DNA of 64,000 bases from an uncultured bacterium (GTDB taxonomy: Bacteria; Hydrothermota; UBA3072): assembly GCA_964525555.1 (NCBI GenBank), contig CAZGHN010000006.1, forward strand, positions 74,805 to 138,804. Reading direction: 5' to 3'. Of this stretch, positions 6,302-60,997 are shown piece after piece. Position numbers and translations under genes: made by a program. Within the stretch, counting starts at the first letter, position 1. Each line of letters begins with the position of its first letter. A model generated the notes under the pieces. It was not told where the DNA came from. It did not search any database and saw only the letters and a program-made list of their open reading frames with translations.

Positions 6302-6492
6302 TAAATAGATTTGCAAGAACCATTTTTAGAAATTAACAGACTTAGACATTGAAATGATTTCATAGATTCTTCGAATCAGTTGAATTGTCAAATCGTTGAA
6401 TAGTTGGATAGTAAGAAAAAACTTCGTGTCTTAGTGTCTTCGTGGCTAATTAGGGGTTGTGGGTTGCTGTCAGCCGTGAGCGGTCAATCGTC

Positions 6493-6520
6493 TTGACAAA
6501 TCGATTTATCTTTTTAATAT
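6493..6520 (+). promoter_or_regulatory. sigma70-like promoter TTGACA-N16-TAATAT for thi4
   Basis: TTGACA 6493-6498, TAATAT 6515-6520, RBS AAGGAGGG 6566-6573, ATG 6577. Confidence 0.5.
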
Positions 6521-6576
6521 CAATAAATTAAATATTTGATGAGTATATTCTTAAGTTTTAAGTCAAAGGAGGGTTA

Positions 6577-12235: not shown

Positions 12236-12583
12236 TTACAGTTTCTCTTTACTGGTTTTTACTATTGAGGTTAAAATTTTAATAATGTCATCAATTTCTT
12301 TAATATATATTTCAACATCACATTTTACAATTTGAGATCTTTGAATTAATCTTAGCCAATATTTAGTTTCACGAGCTTCTTTTGAAGAAATAGCCATTTT
12401 GTTTGTAAAGTCCTTTTTGCTCTGAGCCGCAGAAGCTTCTTCGATATTTGCTCCAATACTTGTTCCACTTCTTAGAACTTGCTTGGACAGAACGTATTCA
12501 TTATTTGCAATCATTTGTCTATACAGATCGATTATCTTTAATGCAAAATCAAAACTTTTATCTTTAATTAAATTCTCTTTCAT
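12236..12583 (-). CDS. four-helix-bundle protein (23S rRNA intervening-sequence protein family)
   Basis: Family-like motif GANIEEASAAQSKKDF...SSKEARETKYWLRLI. Confidence 0.65.
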   Translation of the reverse strand: MKENLIKDKSFDFALKIIDLYRQMIANNEYVLSKQVLRSGTSIGANIEEASAAQSKKDFTNKMAISSKEARETKYWLRLIQRSQIVKCDVEIYIKEIDDIIKILTSIVKTSKEKL

Positions 12584-12721
12584 TTTGTACCTTTTGTTAG
12601 TTCAGAATTCTAAATTAATAATTCATTACTTTTTTTAAGTTTTTCATTCAAAATTCAAAACTCAAAATTCAAAATTGTCATAGTTCATAATTATTATCAT
12701 TTTTGGATTTCTCTATATACT

Positions 12722-18322: not shown

Positions 18323-18449
18323 TAAGCCCTCCTTAATATTTATGCTGTTTTTTCAGCTTTTAGATTATAAAAGTATATTTTGTAATGTCAAGTCCGAAAG
18401 AAGTTTGGGCCTTTGGTGTTTGCTCTCGCATTGTGATTGTAATAACCCC

Positions 18450-18477
18450 TTGACAAGGTTTGAAAAATCAGTATTAT
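18450..18477 (+). promoter_or_regulatory. promoter cccTTGACA-N16-TATTAT
   Basis: TTGACA 18450-18455, TATTAT 18472-18477, ATG 18488 (short leader). Confidence 0.45.
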
Positions 18478-18487
18478 TTATAATACT

Positions 18488-21655: not shown

Positions 21656-22629
21656 TAATCCTTGGACTAGAAACTTCTTGTGATGAGACAGGCGTAGCTC
21701 TTTTGGAAAACGAAAGGGTTTTAGCTAATAAAGTTTACTCTCAGCAGATTCATAGCAGGTTTGGTGGAGTTGTACCCGAGATAGCCTCGCGTGAACACAC
21801 CGAAAGATTACTTGCAATGACTAAAGAAATATTTGAAGAAAACAATATTTCCGTTAATGAAATTGATGGTATTGCTGTAACTTATGGTCCTGGTTTACTT
21901 TGTTCTCTTCTGATTGGTTTGAATTTCGTAAAAGGATTATCTTATTCAAGTGGAATTCCTTTTGTGGGTGTTAATCACCTTGAATCGCATATTTATTCGC
22001 CTTTTATTAGCTTTGATGAGTATTCTTATCCTTTTCTTTCTCTTTTGGTTTCAGGAGGACATACATCAATAGTGAAAGTTAATGATTTCAGAAACTATGA
22101 AGTCCTTGGTTCGACTCTTGATGATGCTTGCGGTGAGAGTTTTGATAAAGTTTCTAAACTTATCGGACTTGGATATCCCGGAGGTCCTGCAATTCAGAGT
22201 TTTGCTGAAGATGGAGACGAAAATGCCTTTAATTTCCCGGTTCCGGATCCCCAAGCTCTGGATTTTTCCTATTCTGGATTAAAGACCAGTGTTCTTTATA
22301 CATATCGGGATATGTCACAGGAGGAAAGAGTTTTAAGAATTCATGATATAGCTGCTTCTTTTCAAAAATCGGCAATAAGCTCATTGATTCTTAAATTAAA
22401 AAGAGCTATGAAGATAACGGGGATTAAAAAAGTAGCGGTAGCGGGCGGAGTTTCGGCAAATAAATTTTTAAGGAAGAGTCTTGAGGGATTGGATATACAA
22501 TGGATTGCACCCGAAAACCAATATACAGCCGATAACGGAGCAATGATTGGTTTTTTGGGTTATAAACTTTTAAAAGAAGGAATAACTTCAGACTTTAGTC
22601 TAAAAGCAGAACCACGTTTGTTTCTTTAA
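21652..22629 (+). CDS. tsaD: tRNA N6-adenosine threonylcarbamoyltransferase
   Basis: N-terminal ILGLETSCDETGVAL and Kae1/TsaD motifs. Confidence 0.85.
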   Translation: MIILGLETSCDETGVALLENERVLANKVYSQQIHSRFGGVVPEIASREHTERLLAMTKEIFEENNISVNEIDGIAVTYGPGLLCSLLIGLNFVKGLSYSSGIPFVGVNHLESHIYSPFISFDEYSYPFLSLLVSGGHTSIVKVNDFRNYEVLGSTLDDACGESFDKVSKLIGLGYPGGPAIQSFAEDGDENAFNFPVPDPQALDFSYSGLKTSVLYTYRDMSQEERVLRIHDIAASFQKSAISSLILKLKRAMKITGIKKVAVAGGVSANKFLRKSLEGLDIQWIAPENQYTADNGAMIGFLGYKLLKEGITSDFSLKAEPRLFL

Positions 22630-22658
22630 TTTTACCGCAGAAGACACAAAGAATAAAA

Positions 22659-22802
22659 ATAGGATTAGAAGCAGTGCAAGTCAGCAATTCTGGGATTATG
22701 GATTAAGTGGTAGTTTCTTTCTTAATCCTCGCTTTTCTTCGAAGCTTCTCATCTAATCCTTAATCCTAGCTCGACTACCAGGTGTTCTACTAATCCTCGA
22801 AA
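22659..22802. repeat. ~145-bp interspersed element (family R1, subtype i)
   Basis: Near-identical to 25128..25271 over about 110 bp; first ~55 bp shared with 28204.. and 29061.. Confidence 0.75.
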
Positions 22803-22854
22803 CCTTGCCCCCTAAACTTTAATCAACTACGAGCAAGGAACAAAGAACTCTTTA

Positions 22855-25002
22855 TTACCTTATCCTTATTACTTTCTTTGAAATTTTAATGTTTCCTGAT
22901 TTTAGTATACCAAAGTACAATCCCGACCCGAGTTTATTGCCTGAATGGTCGCTTCCGTCCCACAAAATAATTGTTGGAGAAGAGCTATTATTTTCTAAGG
23001 AAAAGGATTTTACCAGCTGTCCGTTTACGTTATAAATGGAAAAAGCGGCATCTTTTATGCTATTGTTACCGGCTAGATAGAGAATAAATTCCGTTCTATT
23101 GCTGAAAGGATTAAGCGAGATATTGAAACTTAGAGGTATTGAGTTGTTTGTAGGGGTTTCTATACCTGCTTCTTCATCCTGAAGGACCCAGACTGTTCCA
23201 CCCTCGTGACACATTACGTAGATTTTGTTCGTTTGCGAATTTACTCCAACTTCCCAGGGGGCATCTCCGACTTCGATAGTCGTAATCACGGAATCTGTAT
23301 TTCCGTCAATTACACTGGTATTGTCATTATACTCATTTGCTGCAAAGATGTGGTTCGACTGTGGGTTTACACCTAGTCCTTTTGGCCAGTTTTCGACATC
23401 AATAGTGTCAATCACTAAGTTAGTAGCCCCATCGATTACATGGATACTATCGCATGCAACATATATTCTGTTTGTCTGTGGGTTTATGGCGATCCCTTCA
23501 GGCCAGCTGCCGACCGCAATAGTGTCAATCACGGAGTCAATAGCACCATCGATTGCAACAACACTGTGATTATCCGATTCTGTCACATATATCCGGTTTG
23601 TTTCCGGATTTATGCACATTCCTGATAGCCAGCTTCCAATTGCAGCTGTATCAATAACGGAGTTAGTTGTGCCGTCGAGTACGACAACCTTAGTATTATC
23701 TTCTATTACATATATCCGGTTTGTTTGCGGATTTACGGACATATCTGATATCCAGCTTCCAATTGCAATAGTATCGATCAAGGTGTTAGTAGTTCCGTTA
23801 ATAACGCTAACCTCGTTCTCAGTTCCTACATATATCCGGTTTGTTTCCGGATTCACGCAAACTTCTGACGTATAACCTCCGAGTTCAATGCTGGTAATCA
23901 TGGAGTTGGTAACTCCGTCAATTACGTTGACGCTGTAGCTTTCTCCAGTTGTTACATAAGTTCGGTTTGTTTGTGGATTTACGGCAATATCATTGGGTTG
24001 AACTCCAAGCACGATAGTAGTAATGAGGGTGTGGGTAGTTGCGTCAATCACACTGGCAGTGTGGTTCCAATAATTCGCCGTATATATACGGTTCGTTTTC
24101 AGATTTATAGCAAGCTCCCGCGGTTCGCCTCCAAGTGCGATGGTATCAATAAGTGAATCGAGTGTTACATCAAACACGGTAATAGCGTAGTTGTTTCTGT
24201 CTAAAGAGTAAAGATGGTTGGTTTGTGGGTCTAGACTTATACTGGATGGTCTATGTCCGACATCAATAGTGTCAATCACAGAGTCAGTCTCACCGTCAAT
24301 TACAAAAATGTTACTATAATCATAATTTGCAACATAGATTAGATTTTTTATAGTATCTACCTCAACTCCGAGAGGTCGGTTTCCAACATCAATAGTGTCA
24401 ATCACGGAATCTATAGTTCCGTCAATTACGTGAACATCTTCATCAGCCCAGTTCGTTACATATATGCGCCTGGTTTTTGGATTTGCATCGATTCCATTTG
24501 GCATATTTCCAACCGTAATAGTAGTGATCAAAGAGTTGGTATTGGCATCGATAACACTAACATTGTCGTCACCTTCATTTGCCGTATAGATGAGGTTATT
24601 CTTTGGGTCTATGCTAATTTTATCGGGAGAGTTTCCGATTGCAATAGAATCAATTATGGAGTCAGTTGTCCCATCAATCACATAAATATTGTCGGTGGCC
24701 GGATTTGTCGTGTAAATAAGGTTTGTTTCAGAATTCACTCCGATTTCCCTTGCTGCGTTTGCTAATTCAATAGAGGCAATGACAGAATTGGTTGTACCGT
24801 CGATCACGGAAACATTGTCTGTGAATAAATTTACCACATAGATACGGTTTGTCGCATCATTTACATCAATTGCTGTAGGGCGCAATCCGTTTCCCGATTC
24901 TGGGCGAAGGTATATTGTATCAATAACCGTAACCTGGCTGAACCCAATAATTGTGTAACAGAATATTATAACTGACAATGCGCCTTTTTTTGAAAAAAAC
25001 AT
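22855..25002 (-). CDS. YVTN-family beta-propeller repeat protein with T9SS-type C-terminal sorting domain
   Basis: Many ~43-aa repeats (N..IYV.N..sv.ViDg.T); signal peptide from ATG 25002 with RBS AAGGAG; C-terminal beta-sandwich tail. Confidence 0.7.
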   Translation of the reverse strand: MFFSKKGALSVIIFCYTIIGFSQVTVIDTIYLRPESGNGLRPTAIDVNDATNRIYVVNLFTDNVSVIDGTTNSVIASIELANAAREIGVNSETNLIYTTNPATDNIYVIDGTTDSIIDSIAIGNSPDKISIDPKNNLIYTANEGDDNVSVIDANTNSLITTITVGNMPNGIDANPKTRRIYVTNWADEDVHVIDGTIDSVIDTIDVGNRPLGVEVDTIKNLIYVANYDYSNIFVIDGETDSVIDTIDVGHRPSSISLDPQTNHLYSLDRNNYAITVFDVTLDSLIDTIALGGEPRELAINLKTNRIYTANYWNHTASVIDATTHTLITTIVLGVQPNDIAVNPQTNRTYVTTGESYSVNVIDGVTNSMITSIELGGYTSEVCVNPETNRIYVGTENEVSVINGTTNTLIDTIAIGSWISDMSVNPQTNRIYVIEDNTKVVVLDGTTNSVIDTAAIGSWLSGMCINPETNRIYVTESDNHSVVAIDGAIDSVIDTIAVGSWPEGIAINPQTNRIYVACDSIHVIDGATNLVIDTIDVENWPKGLGVNPQSNHIFAANEYNDNTSVIDGNTDSVITTIEVGDAPWEVGVNSQTNKIYVMCHEGGTVWVLQDEEAGIETPTNNSIPLSFNISLNPFSNRTEFILYLAGNNSIKDAAFSIYNVNGQLVKSFSLENNSSSPTIILWDGSDHSGNKLGSGLYFGILKSGNIKISKKVIRIR

Positions 25003-25127
25003 ATACTTCTCCTTATTTTTACAGACAAATATATTTTGTTTTCCTATTATGTCAACCATTTACTTATAAAAATATCAGTTTATTACTTATAAGGTATTTT
25101 TGTTGCAGAGAGAACACAGAGAATAGA

Positions 25128-25271
25128 ATAGGATTAAAAGTAGAGCAAGTAGGATGTTCAAGGATTATGGATTAAGTGGTAGTTTCTTTCTTAATCCTCG
25201 CTTTTCTTCGAAGCTTCTCATCTAATCCTTAATCCTAGCTCGACTACCAGGTGTTCTACTAATCCTCGAAA
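25128..25271. repeat. ~145-bp interspersed element (family R1, subtype i)
   Basis: See 22659..22802; together they flank the YVTN gene as direct repeats. Confidence 0.75.
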
Positions 25272-25275
25272 TCTT

Positions 25276-26163
25276 TCATTCAAAATGTCTATATCCCCTT
25301 GGGGGAGTGAGTTCGTCGTCGATGTAAACACCTTTTCCGTTTGTTACATACCCGATTTCACGGACAAATTTCTCCTTTATATCATCCGGGGAGGTAAAAA
25401 GGAGTTCAAATTCTTCTCCTGATGTCAAAATTGATTCTTTTAAATCAAGAGAATGTTTTTTAGCAAATTGCTTACATTCAGGATGTTGAGGTATATTTTT
25501 GAAATATATATTAAGTCTTTTTCCGCTTTCTTTCGATATATGGTTGGAGTCTATTAAAAATCCATCTGATATATCTATCATAGAATTGATTCGGTATTTT
25601 TTTGTAAGCTTAATAGCTTCTTCGCATCTTATTTCAGGTTTTAGGTGATATTTGGTTACAGGGGATTTTACATTGTTCTGTAATGCGAAGAATCCCATAT
25701 AGGCTCCGCCAAGATTTCCGGTCAGGTAAATTTTATCATCTTTTTTTGCACTGGAGCGTAGTATTGGTTTTTTTGTAGTACCTACAACTGTAATAGATAG
25801 AAATAAAAAAGGGGATCTTGCTGTGTCTCCTCCCAGTAATTTGACGGAATATTTTTTCTCGAGGTATTGCATTCCGCGAAAAATTTCTTTGATTTCTTTA
25901 ATAGTTTGATTTTGTCTGATTCCAAGGTTTAGAAAATACGAATTTGGTTTGCCGCCTGAGGCTGAAATGTCAGATAGGGCAGAAGCCAGGGCTTTGTATC
26001 CGATATTATAAGGGGAAAAAATAGAGGGAGTAAAATGTACTCCCTCTATAAATGAATCTGTACTTACGATCTGTTTGCGGCTTATTTTAACTGTATCATT
26101 TCCAATCCAGGCTCTGTTTCTTCTTAGGGTCTGGATTATTTGTTGTTCCAGATCGTTAAATAT
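25276..26163 (-). CDS. thiL: thiamine-monophosphate kinase; N-terminus lacks a canonical start codon
   Basis: Frame open from stop at 26185-87; upstream part encodes IGNDTVKI...STDSFIEGVHF...YKALASALSD...GGDT matching ThiL; ORF track starts at internal ATG 25872. Confidence 0.6.
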   Translation of the reverse strand: MFNDLEQQIIQTLRRNRAWIGNDTVKISRKQIVSTDSFIEGVHFTPSIFSPYNIGYKALASALSDISASGGKPNSYFLNLGIRQNQTIKEIKEIFRGMQYLEKKYSVKLLGGDTARSPFLFLSITVVGTTKKPILRSSAKKDDKIYLTGNLGGAYMGFFALQNNVKSPVTKYHLKPEIRCEEAIKLTKKYRINSMIDISDGFLIDSNHISKESGKRLNIYFKNIPQHPECKQFAKKHSLDLKESILTSGEEFELLFTSPDDIKEKFVREIGYVTNGKGVYIDDELTPPRGYRHFE

Positions 26164-26168
26164 TTTTA

Positions 26169-26444
26169 CTACTTTACAGCGTCTTTAAGGCTTTTGCCTG
26201 CACGGAAAATAGGAACTTTTCGCGCTGGAACTCTTACTGTCTGATTCGGTTTCTGGGGATTCCTTGCGATTCTTGCTTTCCTGTGTTTGACGTCAAAAAC
26301 TCCAAACCCTACCATTACTACTCTGTCGCCCTTTTTCAGTGCCTTGACGATATTGTTGATGAGACTTTCTGTCATTTCTTTGGCTTCTGATTTTTTGCAC
26401 CCACAATCTTTCGCTACTGCGTCAATCAATTCCTTTTTATTCAT
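26169..26444 (-). CDS. hup: HU-family DNA-binding protein
   Basis: MNKKELIDAVA...GFGVF...PARKVP typical of HU/IHF. Confidence 0.85.
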   Translation of the reverse strand: MNKKELIDAVAKDCGCKKSEAKEMTESLINNIVKALKKGDRVVMVGFGVFDVKHRKARIARNPQKPNQTVRVPARKVPIFRAGKSLKDAVK

Positions 26445-26818
26445 TTAATAGCCTCCTTTTATTGTTACATAAGAAGTTTAAGCATTTTTGCTTATATGTC
26501 AAGGGTTTTTTTTAATATATGGTTAAAAATTTGCTAAAAGTCTTTTTTTATTTTTTAAACAAATTAGCTGTTTTTATGCAAATAAAACACAGAGCCAGCC
26601 TTTCTACGTGCCTTATTTTTTAGCCACAAAAGACACAGAGATTTTCTTTTATGTTTTTAAAGCTCAACGCACTACCTTGAATTAGCCGCAGATTTTCGCT
26701 TATAAATACGGGTTTCCCACCTACCCATTCTTTAATACTTTTTTGTTTTTAAATATTGAAATAAATTTTTTTAATCTGTGGGAATCCGTGGCTAATTTCG
26801 CCGGGGGTGGGGATGGGC

Positions 26819-26846
26819 TTGACAAGCGGGTTTTGATGGGTATATT
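26819..26846 (+). promoter_or_regulatory. strong sigma70-like promoter TTGACA-N16-TATATT with no ORF close downstream
   Basis: GTGGCTAA and GGGGGTGGGGATGGG tract immediately 5'; nearest + strand ORF starts at 27127. Confidence 0.45.
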
Positions 26847-27126
26847 CTATAAATCGACAAGGCCGATAAAATGTAAAAATAAAAATTCAAAATGGAAAAA
26901 TACAAATCAGAGTTCAAAAATATAAAAAAAAGAGAAATAACAAATTACACGAATAGCACAAAGGTTTTGGGGGGGTGGAGAAGAGATAATTTTACATTTT
27001 CATTTGTAATTTTGCTTTTTAAAATTTGATATTTTAATTATGAAAGAAATGAGATAATTTAAGTGAAATATTTTTTTGCAAGAAAAATAAAAAGTTAATT
27101 ATTTATAATGTAAAAACGGAGGATGC

Positions 27127-27381
27127 ATGCCGACATATGAATATGAGTGCTTAAAATGCAAGTATATATTCGAAAAATTTCAGGGAATAAAAGAGGAACC
27201 TTTGAAAAAATGTCCCAAGTGTGGTGGAAAAGTGAAAAGACTGATTGGTACAGGGGCAGGAATAATATTTAAAGGGAAAGGTTTTTATCATACTGATTAC
27301 AAAATATCGTCTAAAGATAGTATCGGTAAGAGAAAGTCGGAAATTAGTGAAAGTAAAAATTCGAGCAAGGATAAGGATTAA
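27127..27381 (+). CDS. FmdB-family zinc-ribbon protein
   Basis: MPTYEYECLKCKYIFE...CPKCGG. Confidence 0.7.
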   Translation: MPTYEYECLKCKYIFEKFQGIKEEPLKKCPKCGGKVKRLIGTGAGIIFKGKGFYHTDYKISSKDSIGKRKSEISESKNSSKDKD

Positions 27382-27401
27382 TAGTCATTAAAATATTAGT
27401 A

Positions 27402-28196
27402 ATGGGTTTTATCCTTTTTTTATCATTTATTTTTCTTGTATATTTGTATCTTAAGTATTATCAACACATTAAAATTTACGATCCCAGAGATAAATTATCT
27501 GCTTTTCCCGACGAGTTTGGAGTTGAATTTGAGGATGTAAATTTTTCCTCTCGAGATCAAGTATTGTTGAATGGTTGGTTTGTTAAGGGTGATTTAGATG
27601 ATGTTATTCTTTTCTGCCATGGTAATTATGGGAATATTTCAGTAAGAATAGATATTATTAAAGAATTGAATTTGCTTGGCTATAATGTTTTCATTTTTGA
27701 CTACAGAGGTTTTGGAATTAGTAATGGTGTGCCGAGTGAAAACGGTTTGTACTCCGATGGTCTGGGAGCTTACGATTACCTTAAAGAGAGGGGTTTTAGC
27801 GATAAAAATATTATAGTGTTCGGAAGATCCCTAGGAGCTGCGGTTGCTATCTTTCTTTGCGATTTAATTCATGGATTTAAGGGAATCATAATTGACAGCA
27901 CTTTCCAGTCATTACCGATCCTGGGTTATGATATACTTGGTTATAATCTTCCGAAGTTCTTAATATCGAATCGTTTCGAGTCTATTAAAAGGATAAAGAA
28001 CATAGAAATTCCGAAATTGATTATACATAGTGGGGAAGACGATTTAATACCTTTTCGCCATGGTGAAAAACTGTACGAGAAAGCAGTCGGACCTAAAGAG
28101 TTTCTTAAAATCCGGGGTTTGCATAATAATTGTATTTCGGAATCCAAAGATATTTATATGGCCGGGATCAAGGACTTTCTGAATAGTTTGGAATAA
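27402..28196 (+). CDS. membrane-anchored alpha/beta hydrolase
   Basis: N-terminal TM helix; nucleophile elbow GRSLG; downstream Asp/His. Confidence 0.65.
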   Translation: MGFILFLSFIFLVYLYLKYYQHIKIYDPRDKLSAFPDEFGVEFEDVNFSSRDQVLLNGWFVKGDLDDVILFCHGNYGNISVRIDIIKELNLLGYNVFIFDYRGFGISNGVPSENGLYSDGLGAYDYLKERGFSDKNIIVFGRSLGAAVAIFLCDLIHGFKGIIIDSTFQSLPILGYDILGYNLPKFLISNRFESIKRIKNIEIPKLIIHSGEDDLIPFRHGEKLYEKAVGPKEFLKIRGLHNNCISESKDIYMAGIKDFLNSLE

Positions 28197-28203
28197 ATTG
28201 GAG

Positions 28204-28348
28204 ATAGGATTAGAAGCAGTGCAAGTCAGCAGTTCTGGGATTATGGATTAAGTGGTAAGTTAAAATTTAGTCCAAAGTCCAAGGTCCTAAGTCCAAAGTC
28301 TTGAGTCAAAACTAAATCCTAAATCCCAAATCAAAACCCCTAGTATTA
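28204..28348. repeat. ~145-bp interspersed element (family R1, subtype ii)
   Basis: Near-identical to 29061..29204; together they flank gene 28440..28970 as direct repeats. Confidence 0.75.
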
Positions 28349-28439
28349 CTGATTTACTGATTCACTAATTTACTGATATACTGAAATTCCATTTCAAATA
28401 TTCAACAATTCGACCATTCAACTGATCCGAAGGATCTTT

Positions 28440-28970
28440 CTATCTAGAAGTTTTAAGGATTTGATCTAATAACTCATTATTTGTTTTTAATTCTTCCCAA
28501 ATAAGATCCGGGGAAGAGAAGCAGTCGAAAGGGTTTTTCTCATTCCATGAGATATGGTTTAAAGATAAATCTCCTTTTGGTCTAATGTAGAATCGGAATT
28601 CCCAGGTAAGTGGAGTTCCCAAATGGTAACTTATATAATATAAACGTATATATTTATTGCTGCCCGGAAGATAACTTGTGTTAATAAGGTTATATTCATA
28701 AAAATCTCCATATCGCCCATTCGGAGGTTCAATGAAAATACTGTCTAATTTAGTTCTATAATCATTTTTAGTTTTTTCTTTTGTGTCTTCATCCAAGTAA
28801 TAACCAGTTTCTTCAACTATCATTCGAGCGATTTTTTCTGTTCGTTTATTTTTGAGGTCATCGAAAAATTTTACAACAAATTCATTTACTTGTTTATCTG
28901 CTATTTGTTTATCTATTTTAGCTGTTATATATAAAGGAACGAACATAAGTATAAGAATATAAATTTTCAC
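28440..28970 (-). CDS. secreted hypothetical protein (GTG start) preceded by an rhs-core-like promoter module
   Basis: Signal peptide; upstream 28994-29025 is homologous to the rhs HLDRLGSP coding segment. Confidence 0.5.
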   Translation of the reverse strand: MKIYILILMFVPLYITAKIDKQIADKQVNEFVVKFFDDLKNKRTEKIARMIVEETGYYLDEDTKEKTKNDYRTKLDSIFIEPPNGRYGDFYEYNLINTSYLPGSNKYIRLYYISYHLGTPLTWEFRFYIRPKGDLSLNHISWNEKNPFDCFSSPDLIWEELKTNNELLDQILKTSR

Positions 28971-29060
28971 ATAGTCCTCCTTTTTTATTAATGAGTGTAA
29001 TAAGGGGTACCGAGTCTGTCAAGATGGGTTTAATTCTCACACTGAGACACAGAGACCAAA

Positions 29061-29204
29061 ATAGGATTAGAAGCAGTGCAAGTCAGCAGTTCTGGGATTA
29101 TGGATTAAGTGGTAAGTTAAAATTTAGTCCAAAGTCCAAGGTCCTAAGTCCAAAGTCTTGAGTCAAAACTAAATCCTAAATCCCAAATCCAAACCCCTAG
29201 TATT
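29061..29204. repeat. ~145-bp interspersed element (family R1, subtype ii)
   Basis: See 28204..28348. Confidence 0.75.
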
Positions 29205-29365
29205 GCCACAAAGTACACAAATAAAACAAAGATTTTTTTGTTTTAATTCAGAATTCATAGTTCAAAATTATCATCGTCCTTAATCCTGGCTTAACTTCTT
29301 GCTTTTCTTCTAATTACAAAACATTCCCCCCTTGCTCAAAGATTCAAAAAGAATATACTATTTAT

Positions 29366-30592
29366 ATGGAAAAGCTGTCTAATTTCGAGTTTTTTCTTGC
29401 TAAACGTTATATACGAATTAAAAAAGGCGAAGGTTTTAGGTCTTTGATTACTCTTTTTGCTGCAGGAGGAATCTGTCTTGGAGTTGCAACTCTTTTGGTC
29501 GTTTTATCCGTAATGAATGGTATGCAATCCGATCTTAAGCATAAGGTTCTTGGAGCGAGCGCTCCTTTAACGGTTTTAACTATTAATCAGGAAAATATAA
29601 AAGATTGGGAAAAGATTGCGGGCGACTTAAAAGAAAAAATACCTGAGATTCAGAATGCTACGCCATATATTTTTGAGAAAGCTCTTCTCAGATATGATAA
29701 AAGAACCGATGGAGCTATAATAAGAGGAGTAGATCCTGTTTCTTTTGGACTTGTTTCTGATATACCTAAGAATATAGAAGTCGGTGAATTTGATCTTTCG
29801 GGTAAGAGAGTTGTTCTTGGAAATTATCTTGCCAATCGCTTGTGGGCTCATGTAGGGGATACCATAACAATTTCATCTCCTTTTACTTCTGCGCCGACTC
29901 CCTTTGGGTTCCTTTTGCCTGCGGATGATTATATTCTGTCCGGAATATTCGATATGGGCATGTATGAATATAATGCTACACTCGCTATTATATCAGTTGA
30001 TAATGCGAGAAGGCTTTTTGGTATGAATGGGGTTTCGGGTATAGATTTTACTGTTGATGACCCCTATAAGGCTCCGGAACTTTCGATTGATATCGTTGCG
30101 GAGCTTGGATATCCTTATCGGGTGATTAATTGGATGGAAAGGAATAGAACTCTTCTTAGGGCTTTAGAAATCGAGAAAAAAGTAATGTTTATAATATTAA
30201 CTTTAATAATAATTGTTGCTGCTTTTAATATTATTTCTTCTTTGGTTCTTATCGTTCTAGGTAGAATGCGCGAAATAGGTATACTTAAAGCGCTCGGTTC
30301 TTCTTCTTCTTCAATTACAAGAATATTTCTTGTAGATGGGCTTATCGTTGGAGGTGGTGGTGCCCTTTTTGGTGTTTTAGTCGCCTTGATACTATGTTTT
30401 CTTCTTGGCAGGTATAAGTTTATCGATTTGCCTTCCGATATATATTTTCTTACAAAATTGCCTGTGGAAATGCAGTTATTCGATTTTCTTTTGGTATTTT
30501 TTTCTGCCATAATTTTATCTTTATTGGCAGCTTTATACCCGGCAAAGAAAGCCGCCAAACTTGACCCTGTGGAGGCGATCAGAAATGAGTGA
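29366..30592 (+). CDS. lipoprotein-releasing ABC transporter permease, LolC/LolE family
   Basis: FtsX-like permease with N-terminal TM, periplasmic domain and C-terminal three-TM bundle; paired with LolD-like ATPase. Confidence 0.75.
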   Translation: MEKLSNFEFFLAKRYIRIKKGEGFRSLITLFAAGGICLGVATLLVVLSVMNGMQSDLKHKVLGASAPLTVLTINQENIKDWEKIAGDLKEKIPEIQNATPYIFEKALLRYDKRTDGAIIRGVDPVSFGLVSDIPKNIEVGEFDLSGKRVVLGNYLANRLWAHVGDTITISSPFTSAPTPFGFLLPADDYILSGIFDMGMYEYNATLAIISVDNARRLFGMNGVSGIDFTVDDPYKAPELSIDIVAELGYPYRVINWMERNRTLLRALEIEKKVMFIILTLIIIVAAFNIISSLVLIVLGRMREIGILKALGSSSSSITRIFLVDGLIVGGGGALFGVLVALILCFLLGRYKFIDLPSDIYFLTKLPVEMQLFDFLLVFFSAIILSLLAALYPAKKAAKLDPVEAIRNE

Positions 30593-36783: not shown

Positions 36784-36913
36784 AAATCAAAAAAGATCTT
36801 AAAATACATTAACCACAGAGAACACAGAGGAATTAATTGTGATAAAAAAGAGAGAAACACCGGGAACACAGAGAAAAAACAAAAAGTTAATTAGTAATAT
36901 TATGATAGGTTAG

Positions 36914-42123: not shown

Positions 42124-42140
42124 ACTGCTGAAAGCAGTTT
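42122..42140. terminator. hairpin between convergent topA and S8 peptidase genes (weak terminator candidate)
   Basis: AAACTGC-tgaaa-GCAGTTT stem-loop overlapping the topA stop; no clear T-tract. Confidence 0.3.
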
Positions 42141-42405
42141 ACAGTATATCAGTGAATTCGTGAATCAGTAAATTAGTATACTTATTTTACTAATAACTAA
42201 GTAATGTTGCCTTTGTGTGAGAAATTAGGTTTTAGGTCTTTGGTTTTGGGTTTTAGTAAAGAAGAAAATAAAATCTCTACATGTTCTACATGTTAAAAAT
42301 TAAATGGGGTGTGTTGTGTTTTAAATAAACACACATCATTCTTTTTTTCAGTGTGCTCTGAGTTTTTTTCTTTGTGCTCTCCGTGTCTTTGTGTGAGAAT
42401 CTATT

Positions 42406-44967: not shown

Positions 44968-44990
44968 AAAACCTCCATGGTTATGCTTAT

Positions 44991-45019
44991 ATTATGCGAA
45001 ATTTTACTCGATATGTCAA
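44991..45019 (-). promoter_or_regulatory. promoter TTGACA-N17-CATAAT for the S8 peptidase gene
   Basis: Minus strand GTGGCAAAA...TTGACA(45019-45014)...CATAAT(44996-44991); RBS GGAGG before ATG 44967. Confidence 0.45.
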
Positions 45020-45043
45020 TGGTTTATTTTGCCACGAAGACAA

Positions 45044-45180
45044 ACAAAAAACATTTAACACAGAGTACACAGAGAAAAACAAAAAACACAGAGATCACAG
45101 AGAAAAAACTATGTTTCGTGTTTTTAAAACCCAACCCGCCTCAGTTAATTTTTCACATGTAGAACATGTAGGTATTGTAG
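45044..45180. repeat. ~137-bp interspersed element (family R2): four CACAGAG boxes plus conserved block with CATGT-AGA-ACATG palindrome
   Basis: Over 90 percent identical to 60998..61134; both sit just upstream of promoters of secreted-protein genes. Confidence 0.8.
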
Positions 45181-45411
45181 TTTTGTTTTTTACAATTTAA
45201 CTATTTTTCTATTTAACAATTCAACTGATTCGAAGAATCTATAACACTGATTCACCGATTCACTATTTTACTGAATCACTGCTGTCTATTGATGCAATTT
45301 TTTCATAAGTGATACCGTTGATATTTTCATTGGTGACCCCAATTATACGCCAATTACGCAATTACAGAAGATTCAAAACCAATTTCATTGATATTGAATA
45401 TCAAAGTAATC

Positions 45412-46716
45412 TTAGTCAGATACCTTGGGTTCCCATAATTTTAGTTCGCTTATACATGCGTCATTATATTTGGAACCCTTGTATATATCTTTAATAATGA
45501 ATTTGACGGATTTAGTAACATGTGGTTCGATTTTAATCTTTTGTAAATCCATAGTATCTTTTAAATCTAGATTCATTGTTGAGCCATCCGAGAATGATAT
45601 CTCAAGGGTTTTTATTCTATTATTGGCATTAAATATGGCTTTTGATTTAGAGTAACCTGAAATGATATCAATTCTTTCGATATTATATTCCTCATCGAAA
45701 TCCAATTGTATCCATTCGCCTATACCGTCTCCTTCCGAACCTTCAACCCAGGCTGTATTATCATCATTATCAAATATATTGTCTATATCATATAAAAACT
45801 TGTTATTTTTATCGGTAAGAGTAGAAGAGCAGGTCACTTTCATATGATGTCTTTGAATTAACCCTTCGTTTTTCTTTAATTCCGCGATAATATTGTCTAA
45901 GTCTAACTCATAACAATCGACAAGTAGCCCGTTATCTCTGTTTTTCTCAAGGAAATCTATGACTTCCGGATTACAGATTTCTTCTATGTGAGAAAGGAAA
46001 TCATCAATTGGATAATAAACATCAGGTTTATTTATACTTTCTTCGAACGAATTAAGAATAAAATTAAGATTTTTCTCGTACTCATGATTGACCAGACAAT
46101 AAGCTTCCGCAATCGCTAATTCCTCTCTTATTCCCTTTGGCTTGAAATTCTTTAAAACTTCTACAATCCTTTTATCTCGTAATTCTGCCAATCTCCATAA
46201 AATTGGTAATGTAGATATATTTTTACTTTTAAACGGACCATCGAATGGACTCTTATTATCTTTATTGTGTAATTCATTATAGAGTTCTTGCATAAGATAG
46301 TCAAAAACTTTTGGTTTATTTATCTTCTCTAAAATAGATAAAGCAATATATAATGAATATTCACCTTTTTCGATATATCTCTTAACTTTACTATATAAAT
46401 TTGATTTTCTATCTGATGATATTTCTTTTAGAATCGACTCAAATAAATGTAATAATTTCTTTTCTTCAATATCGTCAGATAGCGAAAAGCTTTCAATTAT
46501 ACTTTTACTGGCTTCATCTGTACCAATCTCAATTAAATTTTCATAAGCTTGTTTTATTTTTTGATGATCTTCTTTGGTATTGATGCCTTCTGCAAGAATA
46601 TTTCTAATAATATTAGCGTGACGTTCAACATCTAAATCTTGTGATTTGTCTCCATTTGCTGATAATTGATAGCAAGAGCTAACAAAACATAGAATTATAA
46701 GGATACACGTTTTCAT
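45412..46716 (-). CDS. lipoprotein with helical N-terminal region and C-terminal galactose-binding/discoidin-like domain
   Basis: Lipobox LCFVSSC; C-terminal NTAWVEGSEGDGIGEWIQLDF...ISELKLW. Confidence 0.45.
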   Translation of the reverse strand: MKTCILIILCFVSSCYQLSANGDKSQDLDVERHANIIRNILAEGINTKEDHQKIKQAYENLIEIGTDEASKSIIESFSLSDDIEEKKLLHLFESILKEISSDRKSNLYSKVKRYIEKGEYSLYIALSILEKINKPKVFDYLMQELYNELHNKDNKSPFDGPFKSKNISTLPILWRLAELRDKRIVEVLKNFKPKGIREELAIAEAYCLVNHEYEKNLNFILNSFEESINKPDVYYPIDDFLSHIEEICNPEVIDFLEKNRDNGLLVDCYELDLDNIIAELKKNEGLIQRHHMKVTCSSTLTDKNNKFLYDIDNIFDNDDNTAWVEGSEGDGIGEWIQLDFDEEYNIERIDIISGYSKSKAIFNANNRIKTLEISFSDGSTMNLDLKDTMDLQKIKIEPHVTKSVKFIIKDIYKGSKYNDACISELKLWEPKVSD

Positions 46717-46784
46717 ATTCTATACTCCTTTTTTAGATTTAACGCTCAGTGTTAAGTAATTCATGGTTCTAAGATTTATCAGCG

Positions 46785-47738
46785 TTATTCCCAATAATAG
46801 TTGGGTCCGGCAAGGTCGGTTTTCGGATTAAACACCCGGGTGTTATCTGTTGGTGAAAGCAAAGATTGTAATGTATTATCTTCGGTAAACATTATATAAA
46901 TGTTATCTTCTTTAGGGTCGAAATCTTTGAAGTTCGCGTAAAAAGCTTTTTCATCTTCTCTGCTCATGAAAAGTACGCATCCTGCACTTTTTTCACCAAA
47001 GTGAAATAAACATAAAGTTTTATAATTTTTACCCGAGGCTGATTGAGTCACTGTTAATGAAATTTTAGTCCCTATTTCATTTGGCCACAAGTCTTTTCCA
47101 CCACGATCAGAAGCGTCAAGATTAGCTATATAAAGTGGAACTCCCTTGTTGGTTTTTGTAAATGTATTACTTTCCTTAAACACACCAGCATATTTAACAT
47201 TTGATGGCACAGATAAATATGGCTTGCCATTTTCTGCTGATGTATTTGCTTGACTATTTACCCTAAATTGAGAATTTAAGATAAATTTGTCATCCGCTGT
47301 CAGCCTTAGATTATCACAGTAACCTCCCGAATACCCAACATAATTCCTTACTACATTAATATTATAATCGGTTAAGCCACCAAGGTCAATTCGATTAATC
47401 GGATCATTTGTCGCGTACACATAAGGATTTAGACTTTGTGGGCCGGTTAAAAATAAATCTTGAGGCATAAGCGTATGCGGATCAGGGGTTATAAATCTCC
47501 CGGTATTACTGCTATAATACCTTGCTCCAAAGTAATTGAATCCAGACTTATCTTTTTCCTTTCCGGTGAAATCCCTATTGTCTTCAAGTGTTCCTGAAGT
47601 GCTTAAATTTATACCAAAACTCTCATATGACTTCTCCTTCACAATATCATCCTCATCTGTAATCATAATGGGGGAACCCAGTCTGTCAAGATGATAGAAA
47701 TACAATTTCCCATCCTTTTCTTTGGCAAGGAGGCGGTT
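46785..47738 (-). CDS. orphan rhs C-terminal cassette (start-less): core end (YFYHLDRLGSP...DPINRIDLGGL) plus unique toxin tip
   Basis: Frame opens directly after a stop; homology to rhs begins at NRLLAKEKDGKLYFYHLDRLGSP; no ATG or RBS. Confidence 0.6.
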   Translation of the reverse strand, partial: NRLLAKEKDGKLYFYHLDRLGSPIMITDEDDIVKEKSYESFGINLSTSGTLEDNRDFTGKEKDKSGFNYFGARYYSSNTGRFITPDPHTLMPQDLFLTGPQSLNPYVYATNDPINRIDLGGLTDYNINVVRNYVGYSGGYCDNLRLTADDKFILNSQFRVNSQANTSAENGKPYLSVPSNVKYAGVFKESNTFTKTNKGVPLYIANLDASDRGGKDLWPNEIGTKISLTVTQSASGKNYKTLCLFHFGEKSAGCVLFMSREDEKAFYANFKDFDPKEDNIYIMFTEDNTLQSLLSPTDNTRVFNPKTDLAGPNYYWE

Positions 47739-47755
47739 TTAAAAGAATTTAATAT

Positions 47756-48781
47756 TTATTTTTTAAGGTTAACCAGAAAAACTTTGTCCTTTGAATCTTT
47801 ATCACGCATTAAAAAAACTATCTTCAAACCATCAGGAGACCATTTAGCTGCATGGTTTTTCCTGTATTCTTCTTTGAACCCAAATATTTTCACTGATTTT
47901 CCGGTCTCTAAAGAATATATAAAGACTCCTTCGATAGTTGAATATACCAATTTTTTATCATCCGGAGAAAATGCGCCTGGTGCGAAACCTGGTAGGTATC
48001 GAAAATTATCATCGTTAAAACTAAATAACTTAATATATTTTAAAGTATTAACATTGTAAATCCAATATTCATAAACCGAATTCTCATTTTCAGAAGGCCG
48101 ATAACTAGCATAAAATAAGAACATATTTCCGTCCGAGGACCATACTGGATCCGGATAAGCGGATTTTAAGTCTGTAAGACCGGGAATAACTACTTTTTTG
48201 AATTTCTGCTCTTCCAGATTAAAAAACCACATTCTTTCATCGTAATTTGGTTCTCCCGTCAATGAATCCCTTGGATTACATAAGTCTATAACAATAAAAA
48301 GATCGGTCCGAGTTCCAAAATTTATAGCGCTATTATCGCTGGCATACCTTTGGAATCCCTCAGGGAGACTAACGCTTTTCTTCTCTCCTGACGGATATTT
48401 TATTCTAAGTGTATCTTTATATATCCTGACCACGTATTCCCTGCAGGGACTTACAGCCCAATCATATCCAAACTTCTTAATCGTGTCTACATCAAAGACT
48501 TCTTTTATATTCTCCTTGTTCTTACAATTATCATAGTATAATCTTATAAACTCCATTTCATTAATGCGTAAAGAATCTTTAGTTTCCAGGTCAAGAAGAT
48601 AATATTCGTTATAAGGTTTATATATGGTTTTACCAGAACCTCTATATAGGATTTTATTGGATTCAGTCCACTCATATAGGTATTCTATCTTGTCCGCTTC
48701 AAATATTGCCTGAGCTTTGTAATAGTCAGAGCTACACATACTTATGGTTAGACAGATTAAATTAAGATTAAATAGAAACAT
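47756..48781 (-). CDS. PD40/TolB-like beta-propeller lipoprotein (candidate immunity protein)
   Basis: Start at ATG 48781 with RBS GGAGGA; lipobox LTISMC; repeated SPDG/SSDG motifs. Confidence 0.55.
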   Translation of the reverse strand: MFLFNLNLICLTISMCSSDYYKAQAIFEADKIEYLYEWTESNKILYRGSGKTIYKPYNEYYLLDLETKDSLRINEMEFIRLYYDNCKNKENIKEVFDVDTIKKFGYDWAVSPCREYVVRIYKDTLRIKYPSGEKKSVSLPEGFQRYASDNSAINFGTRTDLFIVIDLCNPRDSLTGEPNYDERMWFFNLEEQKFKKVVIPGLTDLKSAYPDPVWSSDGNMFLFYASYRPSENENSVYEYWIYNVNTLKYIKLFSFNDDNFRYLPGFAPGAFSPDDKKLVYSTIEGVFIYSLETGKSVKIFGFKEEYRKNHAAKWSPDGLKIVFLMRDKDSKDKVFLVNLKK

Positions 48782-48862
48782 CTTGTTTCTCCTCCAATTT
48801 TTCATTTTTTTATATTAAAGATAATACATTTCTATACTTATTCATACTTACCTTAACTCATT

Positions 48863-50383
48863 TCACAATGGAGAAATATAAGGTTCAGGCTCGAAAGACT
48901 CAAAAATCGCTTGCGGTGGATCTTTCATTACTTCGCAATCCTCAGGCGTCTCTTCTGAATCATTCTTTTCGAGTTCATCAATTTGACCTGTTAAATCTTT
49001 CATATCATCATTTGATAACCTTATACACCCATTGGTAGCCCTCAGTTCTTCTGTAGCCTCGGAGAGTTTTCCTCCATGGATTCTAAATAAATCACGATTA
49101 GACTTCTTTGCTTCGCCTGATTTTGGGTCAAGAAGTATTTTTCCGTTAGGACCAAAAGAGCTTAATTTTTTCCCTGTCAATTTCGATGTACTTTGTCTTC
49201 CTGTTATGTCGTAAGTTCCGTAAGGGGTATCTCCATTTTCAGCCATCCTGTCTCTATGATTTCCTCTCCCTAAGGCATCCCAGCTTTTAACAACAATTCC
49301 CTGTCTATTGCGTAAGTATAACCTACCAGTCGTACTACGGTCGTCAGAAAAAGCAACATCTATAGACCATAAACCATTCGGGTCTACACGCGTAAGTGGC
49401 GCATTTAAACAATACACATAAGGATTCAGTTCCTGTGGGTTAGCTAACTTCAATCCTCCAGGCATCAATGTATGCGGATCGGGGGTCAGGAATCTTCCGA
49501 TACTACTACTATAATACCTCGCACCAAAGTAATTGAATCCAGACTTATCTTTTTCTTTACCGGTGAAATCCCGATTGTCTTCGTTAACACCCGTACTACT
49601 AAGGGCAGTACCGAAACTCTCATAAGATTTTTCCTTCACAATATCATCCTCATCTGTAATCATAATGGGGGAACCCAGTCTGTCAAGATGATAATAATAG
49701 ATGTGTCCGTCTTCATCTTTGGCAAGGAGACGGTTTCCCGCATAGAAATACTTCTTCGGAGGAGTTCGCTCTGAACCCGATTCGCATCGGGCGTTATCCA
49801 CCCATAATTTTCCGCCGCCTAACATTCTTGCTATATGAAACTTAAAATTAGCCGCGCCTGAAGGGATATCTCCAGGATTTATCGTTACTGAAATCTTCAT
49901 CCAGTTATTTGTGCCTGTTATTATAGCCGATGATTTCCCTCCGAAACTCTGGGACCAATCCGCACTCCAGAAATCGACCATTACTTTCACTCCTCCCGAT
50001 AGATTTTGAGTCTTTACCCAGACGGAAGCGGTAAAGGGTTTTTTTACCTCTGATAATGAATTATGCTGTATCATGAGTTCCGTTGTGCCCATAGATTGAA
50101 AGAATGGGGAGTATAGGCAATATTTACCTTCCTGGGATTGCTGGGAGGTCACAGACCAATTAAAATCACCTTCCCATTGTCCCCAGCCCGTCTTATCTCC
50201 TGTTTCAAATCCGGGATTTTCAAGAATATTAGGTGAATCATCATCTTCTAAGATGAGGTTGCCCGCGTTATCATGGAAATAATTAATTATTTCAGTATTC
50301 GAAGTAGGACAGTCGGTGATCTCCTGACGAATTCTCGGATATCCTTTATAGGAATATTTATAATTACACAAATATGTCCCGGA
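48863..50383 (-). CDS. orphan rhs C-terminal cassette (start-less): CBM4/9-like domain, rhs core end, L,D-transpeptidase-fold toxin tip
   Basis: Homology to full-length rhs from YKGYPRIRQEIT onward; YYYHLDRLGSP...DPNGL; tip contains HGG-x17-TNGCIRL (YkuD catalytic signature); only a TTG at 50371, no RBS. Confidence 0.6.
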   Translation of the reverse strand, partial: SGTYLCNYKYSYKGYPRIRQEITDCPTSNTEIINYFHDNAGNLILEDDDSPNILENPGFETGDKTGWGQWEGDFNWSVTSQQSQEGKYCLYSPFFQSMGTTELMIQHNSLSEVKKPFTASVWVKTQNLSGGVKVMVDFWSADWSQSFGGKSSAIITGTNNWMKISVTINPGDIPSGAANFKFHIARMLGGGKLWVDNARCESGSERTPPKKYFYAGNRLLAKDEDGHIYYYHLDRLGSPIMITDEDDIVKEKSYESFGTALSSTGVNEDNRDFTGKEKDKSGFNYFGARYYSSSIGRFLTPDPHTLMPGGLKLANPQELNPYVYCLNAPLTRVDPNGLWSIDVAFSDDRSTTGRLYLRNRQGIVVKSWDALGRGNHRDRMAENGDTPYGTYDITGRQSTSKLTGKKLSSFGPNGKILLDPKSGEAKKSNRDLFRIHGGKLSEATEELRATNGCIRLSNDDMKDLTGQIDELEKNDSEETPEDCEVMKDPPQAIFESFEPEPYISPL

Positions 50384-50405
50384 CTAAAATGTGTAGTTAA
50401 GTGAT

Positions 50406-50726: not shown

Positions 50727-50742
50727 TATTTATTATCCCCTG

Positions 50743-51834: not shown

Positions 51835-51844
51835 TATGCTCCTC

Positions 51845-55233: not shown

Positions 55234-55248
55234 TCTCTCCTTTAAATC

Positions 55249-60980: not shown

Positions 60981-60997
60981 TTAGCCACACCCACCAC

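Follow-up and report, generated by a model that had tools for sequence, protein, structure and literature searches.

The 64-kb window analysed here, a stretch of contig CAZGHN010000006.1 from an uncultured bacterium, carries four copies of an intergenic repeat that we call R1. All four lie on the + strand and form two near-identical pairs, as seen in the sequence of 22400-29500 and in a repeat search of the whole window, and each pair encloses exactly one gene, encoded on the - strand. The four copies have a head of ~55 nt in common, which is followed by one of two tail types, a and b. The features of the region are these (positions in the window; T9SS, type IX secretion system):

22635-22655, + strand: CGCAGAAGACACAAAG box, directly 3' of the tsaD stop codon
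22659-22802, + strand: R1 type-a copy 1, with its head at 22659-22714, an inner CTTAATCC at 22721 and a 3' arm at 22750-22797
22855-25002, - strand: gene a, a 715-aa secreted NHL/YVTN beta-propeller protein whose C-terminus matches FlgD_ig and, weakly, Por_Secre_tail (a T9SS sorting domain)
25028-25055, - strand: promoter of gene a, sigma-70-like, TTGACA-16-TATATT, 11/12 matches
25103-25124, + strand: GCAGAGAGAACACAGAG box, ahead of copy 2
25128-25271, + strand: R1 type-a copy 2, flanked by the promoter of gene a and the stop codon of thiL
28204-28347, + strand: R1 type-b copy 3, with its head at 28204-28259, then the b tail, a (AGTCCAAN)n / (CTAAATC)n module
28440-28970, - strand: gene b, a 176-aa signal-peptide protein of no Pfam family
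28994-29022, - strand: promoter of gene b, TTGACA-17-TACACT
29061-29204, + strand: R1 type-b copy 4, head and b tail, with a CACAGAG box ahead at 29048
29277-29315, + strand: R1 3' arm TCCTTAATCCTGGCTTAACTTCTTGCTTTTCTTCTAATTAC (nhmmer with a 3'-arm profile, E 7.5e-8)

R1 pairs and the genes between them

In the repeat search the type-a pair extends over 149 nt (22658-22806 and 25127-25275) at 93% identity. The 10 mismatches within the element all fall in the head (22668-22692), with 100% identity from 22693 to 22802, i.e. divergence jumps sharply from 24% in the head to 0% over the following 110 nt, a switch that a recombination or conversion tract in the pair would produce. Copy 1, which sits where the 3' ends of tsaD and the YVTN gene converge, has the genome-standard form of the head, at 3 positions different from the heads of the b copies; the head of copy 2, with its 10 differences from copy 1, is the better palindromic partner of the a tail. 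The type-b pair (28204-28347 and 29061-29204) spans 144 nt at 99% identity, with a single mismatch at 28333. Of the four window heads, three are near-identical. Probes made from the head, 28 and 20 nt long, gave 3 and 4 matches (≤3 mismatches), all confined to the four R1 sites, where shuffled sequences would be expected to give 0.00 and 0.01. Short-read Logan contigs of the window's organism end exactly at R1 copies, which confirms that the element is multi-copy. By rough combinatorics, if four copies were scattered randomly over the ~24 sizeable spacers between genes, two single-gene brackets would arise by chance with p~0.02, or ~0.007 if the pairs must match in subtype too.

The four copies, their common head, the two subtypes and the bracketing of one gene by each subtype pair had been described in the original prediction, made from the letters alone, and repeat search and head probes bore them out. 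Two of its further descriptions apply in part. The GGATTAAG/CTTAATCC inverted repeat that it placed in the elements is present in type a only; for the b pair, the CTTAATCC partner is the separate 3' arm at 29277-29315, which had been overlooked and which is followed by the conserved lolC promoter and start. The CACAGAG box that it saw ahead of the elements is exact before copies 2 (25115) and 4 (29048), reads CACAAAG before copy 1 (22645) and is missing before copy 3; in relatives the association is general, with a CACAGAG-like box ≤60 nt upstream of 22 of ~31 non-redundant heads. The box at 22635-22655 is orthologous to TTTTACCACAAAGACACAAA in the closest relative (L074), and the orthology of this tsaD-proximal box (TTTTACCGCAGAAGACACAAAG) indicates that the left flank of the a site is resident. 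Since the boxes before copies 1 and 2 are ~75% similar, the likeness of the a copies reaches ~35 nt upstream of the head, in diverged form.

Given the TTGACA-16-TATATT sequence upstream of it, the YVTN gene carries its own promoter. The promoter and 5' untranslated region of gene b form a 65-nt module (28970-29034) that is repeated with 85% identity at 61829-61893, before a gene for a 190-aa protein. The 176-aa and 190-aa small secreted proteins are very distant at best (29% identity over 52 aa, E 0.002), and the module common to their genes implies that promoter regions, too, behave as shared modules. Both bracketed genes have an ordinary GC content, overall and at third codon positions: they deviate from the window mean by no more than ~1-1.7 sd, consistent with an exchange inside the clade. 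The 176-aa gene family moves around the genome: homologues with 60-72% identity occur in three other genomic contexts of relatives, of which one is a secretin cluster and two are islands carrying toxin-antitoxin genes and Y1 transposases, and at these three loci they keep their own promoter.

Two observations concern the ends of genes in this region. A GATTC-TTCG-GAATC hairpin, with a UUCG-like loop and no U-tract, stands right after the stop codon of gene b (28424-28436), after other stops at 6373-6388, 45236-45250 and 61196-61210, and downstream of the 176-aa homologues in L070-L072; it may be this lineage's terminator or 3'-end module. In the 5' part of thiL (25873-26170), the conserved N-terminal ~100 codons contain no ATG, GTG or TTG after the upstream stop, and the frame abuts the stop of the HU gene. 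Gene callers cut ThiL to 198 aa in the window and choose internal GTG starts in relatives, a pattern suggestive of translational coupling or of a non-canonical start codon throughout the clade.

Both genes are insertions relative to related loci

We fetched nine distinct related loci with ThiL homologues as anchors. The site of gene a is empty in all nine: HU-thiL is directly followed by convergent tsaD, across a spacer of 45-237 nt that holds CACAGAG boxes and other modules, and neither a YVTN gene nor an R1 head. These loci are L063-L069, the closest relative L074 (ThiL 84% identical) and the more distant L076/L077 (61%). Because the outgroup L076/L077 also lacks the YVTN gene and R1, the YVTN gene and its two R1a copies are polarised as a gain in the lineage of the window.

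The site of gene b can be followed further. In L064-L067 lolC and the hydrolase gene are adjacent, and in L065-L067 (ThiL 81%), the nearest relatives with coverage here, the 166-nt spacer between them consists of one complete short R1 (head, 11-nt loop and 3' arm) followed by the lolC promoter. R1 is thus present in this spacer in the window and in L065-L067, and absent from it in L064 and L069. In a gapped alignment to the 166-nt empty site, window positions 28181-28260 match its left part (hydrolase gene end and head, 52/66 identical) and 29277-29373 its right part (3' arm, promoter and start, 79/96 identical). The head of copy 3 (28204) and the 3' arm at 29277-29315 are therefore orthologous to the head and arm of the single R1 in L065-L067, with the following between them:

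28261-29276, no strand: DNA inserted relative to L065-L067, ~1016 nt between the ancestral R1 head and 3' arm, without alignment to the empty site

In order, the insert comprises a b tail, short-period modules, a GATCCGAAGGATC hairpin, the 176-aa gene and its promoter, and then a CACAGAG box, a second head with b tail, and CACAAAG and TTCAAAA modules. As the alignment leaves 28261-29276 unmatched, the 176-aa gene sits inside an ancestral R1, with head and b tail duplicated; copy 4 is the duplicated copy, which came with the insert. Both bracketed genes are insertions relative to the relatives examined, one of them within an ancestral R1. The two window pairs mark the insertion sites of single secreted-protein genes, which most likely entered by recombination at the repeat.

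Breakpoints between relatives also coincide with R1 boundaries elsewhere. L004 and L060, for instance, are orthologous on both sides of an R1 (84-87% identity), L060 having a plain R1a; exactly at the head end, where L060 continues with the 95-nt a tail, L004 has 1.83 kb made up of a b tail, the same CACAAAG/TTCAAAA succession as after window copy 4 and a major facilitator superfamily (MFS) transporter gene. Between the orthologous R1 copies of L008/L028 and L019/L041 there are differences of two kinds: a 48-nt module within the element, and an indel at the head's 5' edge. Two more pairs enclose a gene. In L032 two direct c-type copies (73% identical) surround a gene for a 264-aa lipoprotein, and in L040 two inverted a-type copies surround a gene for a 793-aa BNR/Sortilin-type signal-peptide protein, whose C-terminus resembles a T9SS sorting tail by eye and gave no Pfam hit. 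Copies are thus direct in the window and L032 and inverted in L040, and the orientation of R1 relative to the bracketed gene differs between cases. All four R1-bracketed genes known, in four cases only, encode signal peptides. Relatives also have extra secreted-protein genes inserted into conserved synteny at sites other than R1: L065 (8709-12347) has a 1212-aa S8 peptidase with a T9SS tail where the window has a 165-nt spacer (18323-18487), and L068 (5770-7692) has a gene for a 640-aa DUF1573 protein.

The cassette-like mobilisation put forward in the original prediction, which had also proposed comparing synteny with relatives, thus finds backing in the absence of both genes from the orthologous sites of every relative examined, in the single-R1 empty site for gene b, and in the L032 and L040 pairs, which also bracket single signal-peptide genes; the points that lack backing are taken up below.

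R1, which had not been described before, is a modular and imperfectly palindromic intergenic repeat specific to a lineage of uncultured sediment bacteria. When GTDB genomes and JGI metagenomes were scanned with its invariant core, true copies turned up only in 'uncultured bacterium' metagenome-assembled genomes (MAGs) of ~35-40% GC and in sediment contigs, with chance matches elsewhere. A head profile search collected 53 copies, ~31 of them non-redundant. Copy number is low, with 2-4 exact-core matches per multi-hit MAG and 1 in two others. The conserved 55-nt head, or 5' arm, has GGATTA at offsets 0, 31 and 38; it is built of two conserved boxes, GGATTAGAAG and (A/G)GGATTATGGATTAAGTGGTA, at fixed spacing around a variable middle, and can be written as GGATTA-N25-GGATTATGGATTA. 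Type a, found at 16-17 loci, has a conserved 3' arm (...CTAATCCTTAATCC-N-GCTTAACTTCC-GCTTTTCT-CTAATCC) that mirrors the head with TAATCC motifs, the whole being an imperfect palindrome of 105-150 bp. The tail is (AGTCCAAN)n in type b (6 loci) and carries TTCAAAAAACAAGACC in type c (3 loci), and six loci have other tails. According to the 3'-arm profile, such arms are always found downstream of a head and share its orientation; the distance ranges from ~50 nt to the 1.1 kb of the window. The b, c and other tail types have no 3' arm of their own.

R1 is strictly intergenic. It occurs in convergent, divergent and tandem spacers, in both orientations, and often begins 5-30 nt past a stop codon; in tandem gene contexts 7 copies are in sense and 2 in antisense, and there is no significant orientation bias relative to neighbouring genes. 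Copies are kept at orthologous sites across species, and R1 is largely inherited vertically. It was not found in plasmids or phages (blastn of R1a, distant mode) or in viral contigs, the lone viral-contig match to the head core (L075) being a chance match inside a coding region.

As for the host, ThiL homologues form a tight clade of 58-84% identity, after which identity drops to ≤45% (Cloacimonadota, Zixibacteria, 'bacterium'). The 61% relative, our outgroup L076/L077, is NGFL01 (GCA_002215665.1, 38.8% GC), from a Santa Barbara oil seep; Sieber et al. placed such genomes beside TA06/WOR-3, as possible new phylum-level lineages (PMC6786971). It is indirectly, through this outgroup from the DAS Tool oil-seep study, that we call the R1 lineage TA06/WOR-3-related. 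NGFL01 has ordinary spacers, with neither R1 nor CACAGAG mosaics, which confines the phenomenon to the inner clade.

How genes came to lie between R1 copies

We consider it probable that R1 acts as portable homology for a recombination-driven gain of accessory genes, and that the window pairs are the footprints of two such events. We infer that the recombination is homologous (RecA-type) rather than the work of a dedicated enzyme, and that R1 has no other required function. The same head at several loci would provide shared homology, and recombination between R1 copies, with the partner in the cell's own genome or on DNA that was acquired from relatives, would swap the DNA next to the head. 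A gene could arrive by double crossover, with exchanges in the head and in the 3' arm or tail of a resident R1 and of donor DNA with R1-gene-R1; or a circle of R1 and gene, looped out from between two directly repeated R1 copies, could undergo Campbell-type integration. Both ways would leave R1-gene-R1 at the target, inserting a promoter-bearing accessory gene for a secreted protein, and would explain the CACAGAG box that copy 4 brings along and that is missing before the resident head (copy 3, and in L065 as well). A recurrent 'junction' after GGATTAAGTGGTA is to be expected, because homology between element types ends there. Several observations favour general over directional, site-specific recombination: the variable orientation and the inverted pair of L040; the lack of a recombinase in the window, since no recombinase or transposase domain was seen among the genes of the 64 kb that were scanned or annotated through identical or syntenic loci; and a 112-nt module unrelated to R1 that brackets two genes for signal-peptide or transmembrane proteins (427-2133).

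A number of results weigh against such a role for R1. No relative with a single resident R1 was found at the tsaD/thiL site, where the step of recombination with a resident copy would have to be supposed for the a pair, and no donor locus (R1-gene-R1 elsewhere) was found for either inserted gene. The three fetched contexts of the 176-aa homologues have no R1 flanks, and the extra genes of L065 (S8 peptidase) and L068 (DUF1573) have no flanking repeats. R1-adjacent genes overall are not enriched for signal peptides (15/48 against 37/151 by a crude score, p=0.35). Many of the related loci are short, and the 'single' status of some copies is weak for that reason. Finally, the strict conservation of the spaced GGATTA motifs suggests a protein-binding function beyond plain homologous recombination.

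In another explanation, R1 would be an attachment (att)-like site of a site-specific recombinase encoded elsewhere, the genes being integrase-less cassettes, like integron cassettes or cis-mobilisable elements (CIMEs), and the repeats attL/attR-like. Imperfect palindromes of ~145 bp do stand here as direct repeats around single genes, as do the attC sites of Vibrio (VCRs); GGATTA is invariant, spaced at 31 and 38 nt and mirrored in the 3' arm, resembling arrays of protein-binding sites; diverse content repeatedly starts at one position, right after GGATTAAGTGGTA, and the window insertion falls precisely between two arms. We nevertheless regard this explanation as unlikely. Among the window genes scanned or annotated through related loci no integrase, transposase or recombinase domain turned up, the element ends have no attC R''/R' core sites, and no tRNA or tmRNA gene lies nearby as a candidate att site. 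The cassettes have their own promoters and are not arrayed, with housekeeping genes between them; the L040 copies are inverted and the genes do not keep one orientation towards R1; the fixed junction is expected anyway at the end of shared homology; and R1 occurs mostly as single copies that persist at orthologous loci in different species. An obligate pairing of R1, or a directional cassette site, hence finds no backing. Single copies elsewhere were also what the original prediction had named as speaking against it, and the family does consist largely of them (23 of ~31 in relatives); the evidence for insertion at the two window pairs stands nonetheless. A more specific proposal, which we find rather doubtful, takes the head and 3' arm with their phased GGATTA as the site of a putative recombinase that inserts promoter-bearing single-gene cassettes between the arms. 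If this were true, it would amount to integron-like gene capture without IntI and attC, confined to a lineage at the level of a candidate phylum, with secreted or surface proteins and transporters as cassettes and the CACAGAG, AGTCCAA and TTCAAAA modules as by-products or accessory sites. A true integron was rejected: the four elements and their flanks contain no GTTRRRY by regular expression, and the lone RYYYAAC (29289) is internal to the 3' arm; an array was rejected too, as thiL, the HU gene, a Zn-ribbon gene and the hydrolase gene separate the brackets and both genes have TTGACA-type promoters. The template and variable repeats of a diversity-generating retroelement were likewise discarded. 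The ten differences of the a pair (G>A, C>T, T>A, C>A, A>G, C>A, A>T, A>G, T>A, G>A) are not confined to adenines, both copies are intergenic, and no reverse transcriptase was found in the window.

We give little credence to type a as a non-autonomous element akin to a miniature inverted-repeat transposable element (MITE), with pairs due to independent insertion or local duplication on either side of recent genes, even though its 105-150 bp, its terminal inverted repeats (GGATTAG...CTAATCC) and its sub-terminal repeated motifs have the look of one, R1 occupies the hydrolase/lolC spacer in some loci and not in others, and the near-identity of three window heads suggests recent copying. There is no consistent target-site duplication and flanking dinucleotides are inconsistent; in no fetched locus does a transposase lie between R1 ends, those of L040 enclosing a BNR-repeat secreted protein; copy number is low, and copies are conserved at orthologous positions across species. 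Transposition would, moreover, leave unexplained a gene lying between the head and the 3' arm of one ancestral element, as well as heads with b, c or other tails and no 3' arm. It seems just as improbable that R1 works as a signal in RNA or DNA (a small RNA, an insulator, or a terminator or long hairpin in the 3' UTR) that travels with, or is selected beside, accessory genes that are transcribed independently, with pairs insulating the inserted ones. On the + strand type a does fold as a whole-length hairpin, better than shuffles do (copy 1, -41.9 kcal/mol, z -3.9; copy 2, -42.1 kcal/mol, z -3.3). In an alignment of 12 type-a elements 87% of the cells are paired, compared with 25-50% when slid as a control, with 97.6% pairing at the GGATTAG...CTAATCC termini and one apical pair that alternates between U-A and A-U; the frequent position just after stop codons and the excess of sense copies in tandem contexts would also suit a signal. 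However, the two strong GGATTA-based helices never vary in sequence and hence are silent on selection as RNA. RNAalifold found 0 compensatory pairs among 26 in an alignment of 8 type-a sequences, and in a manual structure for the 12 sequences 3 of 35 pairs changed on both sides, a marginal score that 16 of 500 shuffles reached. Type b folds poorly (z -1.9 to -2.3, centroid -22 kcal/mol), no terminator-like U-tract follows the R1 hairpin, copies stand in every kind of spacer in both orientations, and Rfam gave 0 matches, in gathering mode over the whole window and at E≤1 over 22600-29400. The palindrome is real, and its selection as RNA has no positive evidence; the paired regulatory or structured-RNA elements of the original prediction accordingly find no backing.

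Mosaic spacers and R1 among known repeats

Nearly every sizeable intergenic spacer of the window is a mosaic of degenerate tandem modules of 7-10 nt, e.g. at 390-527, 6302-6576, 12584-12721, 26445-27126, 36784-36913, 42124-42405, 44968-45411, 53087-53411, 60847-61253 and 61827-62200. The vocabulary includes CACAGAG(A/T)A, TTCAAAA, AGTCCAA, TACTGATT, CATGTAGAA, GGTTAGG, CCCCAATTACA and GACGCNNN, and follows a loose 'syntax', such as two CACAGAG pairs, an A or T run and then AAAACCCACCCC; it is common to the relatives L063-L074 and absent from the outgroup L076. The 112-nt module mentioned above is a direct repeat (94%; 427-548 and 2012-2133) around two genes for signal-peptide or transmembrane proteins of no Pfam family (528-1232 and 1347-2024), and contains a TTCAAAA module, a CAATGCTTCGCATTG hairpin and a TTGACT promoter. 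As the promoter of its left copy points into the 3' end of a convergent gene, the repeat looks like the duplication footprint of an insertion unrelated to R1. Another mosaic of ~230 nt occurs twice, 16 kb apart (45021-45254 and 60974-61222, 83-96% identity), upstream of an S8 peptidase gene and of an Rhs gene, with CACAGAG boxes, AAAACCCAACCC, CATGTAGAACATGTAG and a GATTCGAAGAATC hairpin.

The Rhs gene belongs to a polymorphic-toxin locus at 45412-63979, with a 1865-aa RHS-repeat protein (55249-60846). Several open reading frames downstream of it or adjacent share repeats of 213, 128 and 300 nt, at 47373, 49370, 52460, 55795 and 63254, and look like orphan Rhs C-terminal tips; among them are a YkuD/Tlde1-like domain (48863-50371) and the end of an RHS core (62687-63979). 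A free-standing gene for a 115-aa '23S rRNA-intervening sequence protein' (PF05635) lies between module-rich spacers at 12236-12583. In relatives, L071 (187-1188) and L072 (1269-2219) have genes for Y1_Tnp proteins of 316-333 aa, IS200- or RAYT-like (REP-associated tyrosine transposase; REP, repetitive extragenic palindromic), one with a DnaA_C-like domain, between inverted GGGGTCAAATCTCAACACTTGACAAA flanks. The window has remnants of the GGGGTCAAATCTCAACACTTGACAAA repeat at ~62120-62150 and 53087-53160 (TTGTCAAGCGTTGAGATTTACCCCC and tandem GACCCCAATTACA), and together with these genes they point to a REP/RAYT-like system in the clade that is distinct from R1. A REP/RAYT origin of R1 itself was set aside, the repeat that flanks the Y1_Tnp genes being unrelated to it and tblastn finding no Y1_Tnp in the window.

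R1 qualifies as a new example of a general kind, the modular palindromic intergenic repeat, to which bacterial interspersed mosaic elements (BIMEs), BOX, enterobacterial repetitive intergenic consensus (ERIC) elements and neisserial intergenic mosaic elements (NIMEs) belong: it is multi-copy, intergenic, palindromic and lineage-restricted, with recombining modules. What sets it apart is that comparison with relatives directly shows a gene inserted within the element. Like the attC sites and VCRs of integrons, it forms imperfect palindromes of ~60-145 bp that stand as direct repeats around single genes, often of unknown function, with insertion at the repeat. Unlike integrons, the R1 system has neither IntI nor attI nor a cassette promoter (Pc) in the 64 kb and no fixed orientation, and R1 is conserved in sequence where attC is conserved in structure. 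REP and REPIN elements with their RAYTs, ERIC and the MITEs of Correia type likewise belong to the short palindromic repeats of intergenic DNA, the REPIN being two inverted arms in a ~100-nt hairpin and ERIC and Correia elements imperfect palindromes of 127-156 bp, as R1 is; R1 differs in its low copy number, in the lack of a target-site duplication and in heads without a 3' arm, and the RAYT-type genes of its clade are flanked by another repeat.

In architecture, the nearest analogue would seem to be the BOX element of Streptococcus pneumoniae. BOX is intergenic and has the form boxA-boxB(n)-boxC, with conserved, partly complementary A and C modules around a variable B; BOX and R1 are alike in having 5' and 3' modules that enclose variable internal ones, and a predicted long stem-loop. 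BOX is unrelated to R1 in sequence and reaches ~100 or more copies per genome, and we know of no BOX element that encloses a whole gene between boxA and boxC.

In function, the nearest analogue appears to be the NIME, a mosaic of modules with interspecies synteny and turnover by recombination, associated with surface-protein genes and proposed as the entry point for array-flanked genes (PMC1797815; PMC11893778). Both are mosaics of a small vocabulary of repeat modules, syntenic between related species and subject to module turnover; in the R1 lineage, gene-sized insertions or replacements start at R1 boundaries, and the four bracketed genes all encode signal-peptide proteins. The two differ in sequence, in the conserved arm (55 nt, against the 20-bp dRS3 of NIMEs), in copy number, which is far lower for R1, and in host, an uncultured TA06/WOR-3-related lineage instead of Neisseria; a NIME by sequence was discarded for R1, since no dRS3 motif (ATTCCCN8GGGAAT) lies in or around any copy. 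To our knowledge, R1 has no link to a phage recombinase or an Ssn-type nuclease, and the exchange of surface-protein genes by mosaic intergenic repeat arrays has been argued for mainly in Neisseria. The R1 lineage would extend the same logic to unrelated, uncultured sediment bacteria, and does so with unusually clean comparative evidence: an ancestral repeat split by a 1-kb gene-bearing insert, and two further gains or replacements anchored at R1. R1 and its companion modules break short-read assemblies of these bacteria exactly at accessory genes, and the R1 loci offer concrete junctions at which to ask, beside the neisserial arrays, how dispersed repeats drive the turnover of accessory genes without obvious mobile elements.

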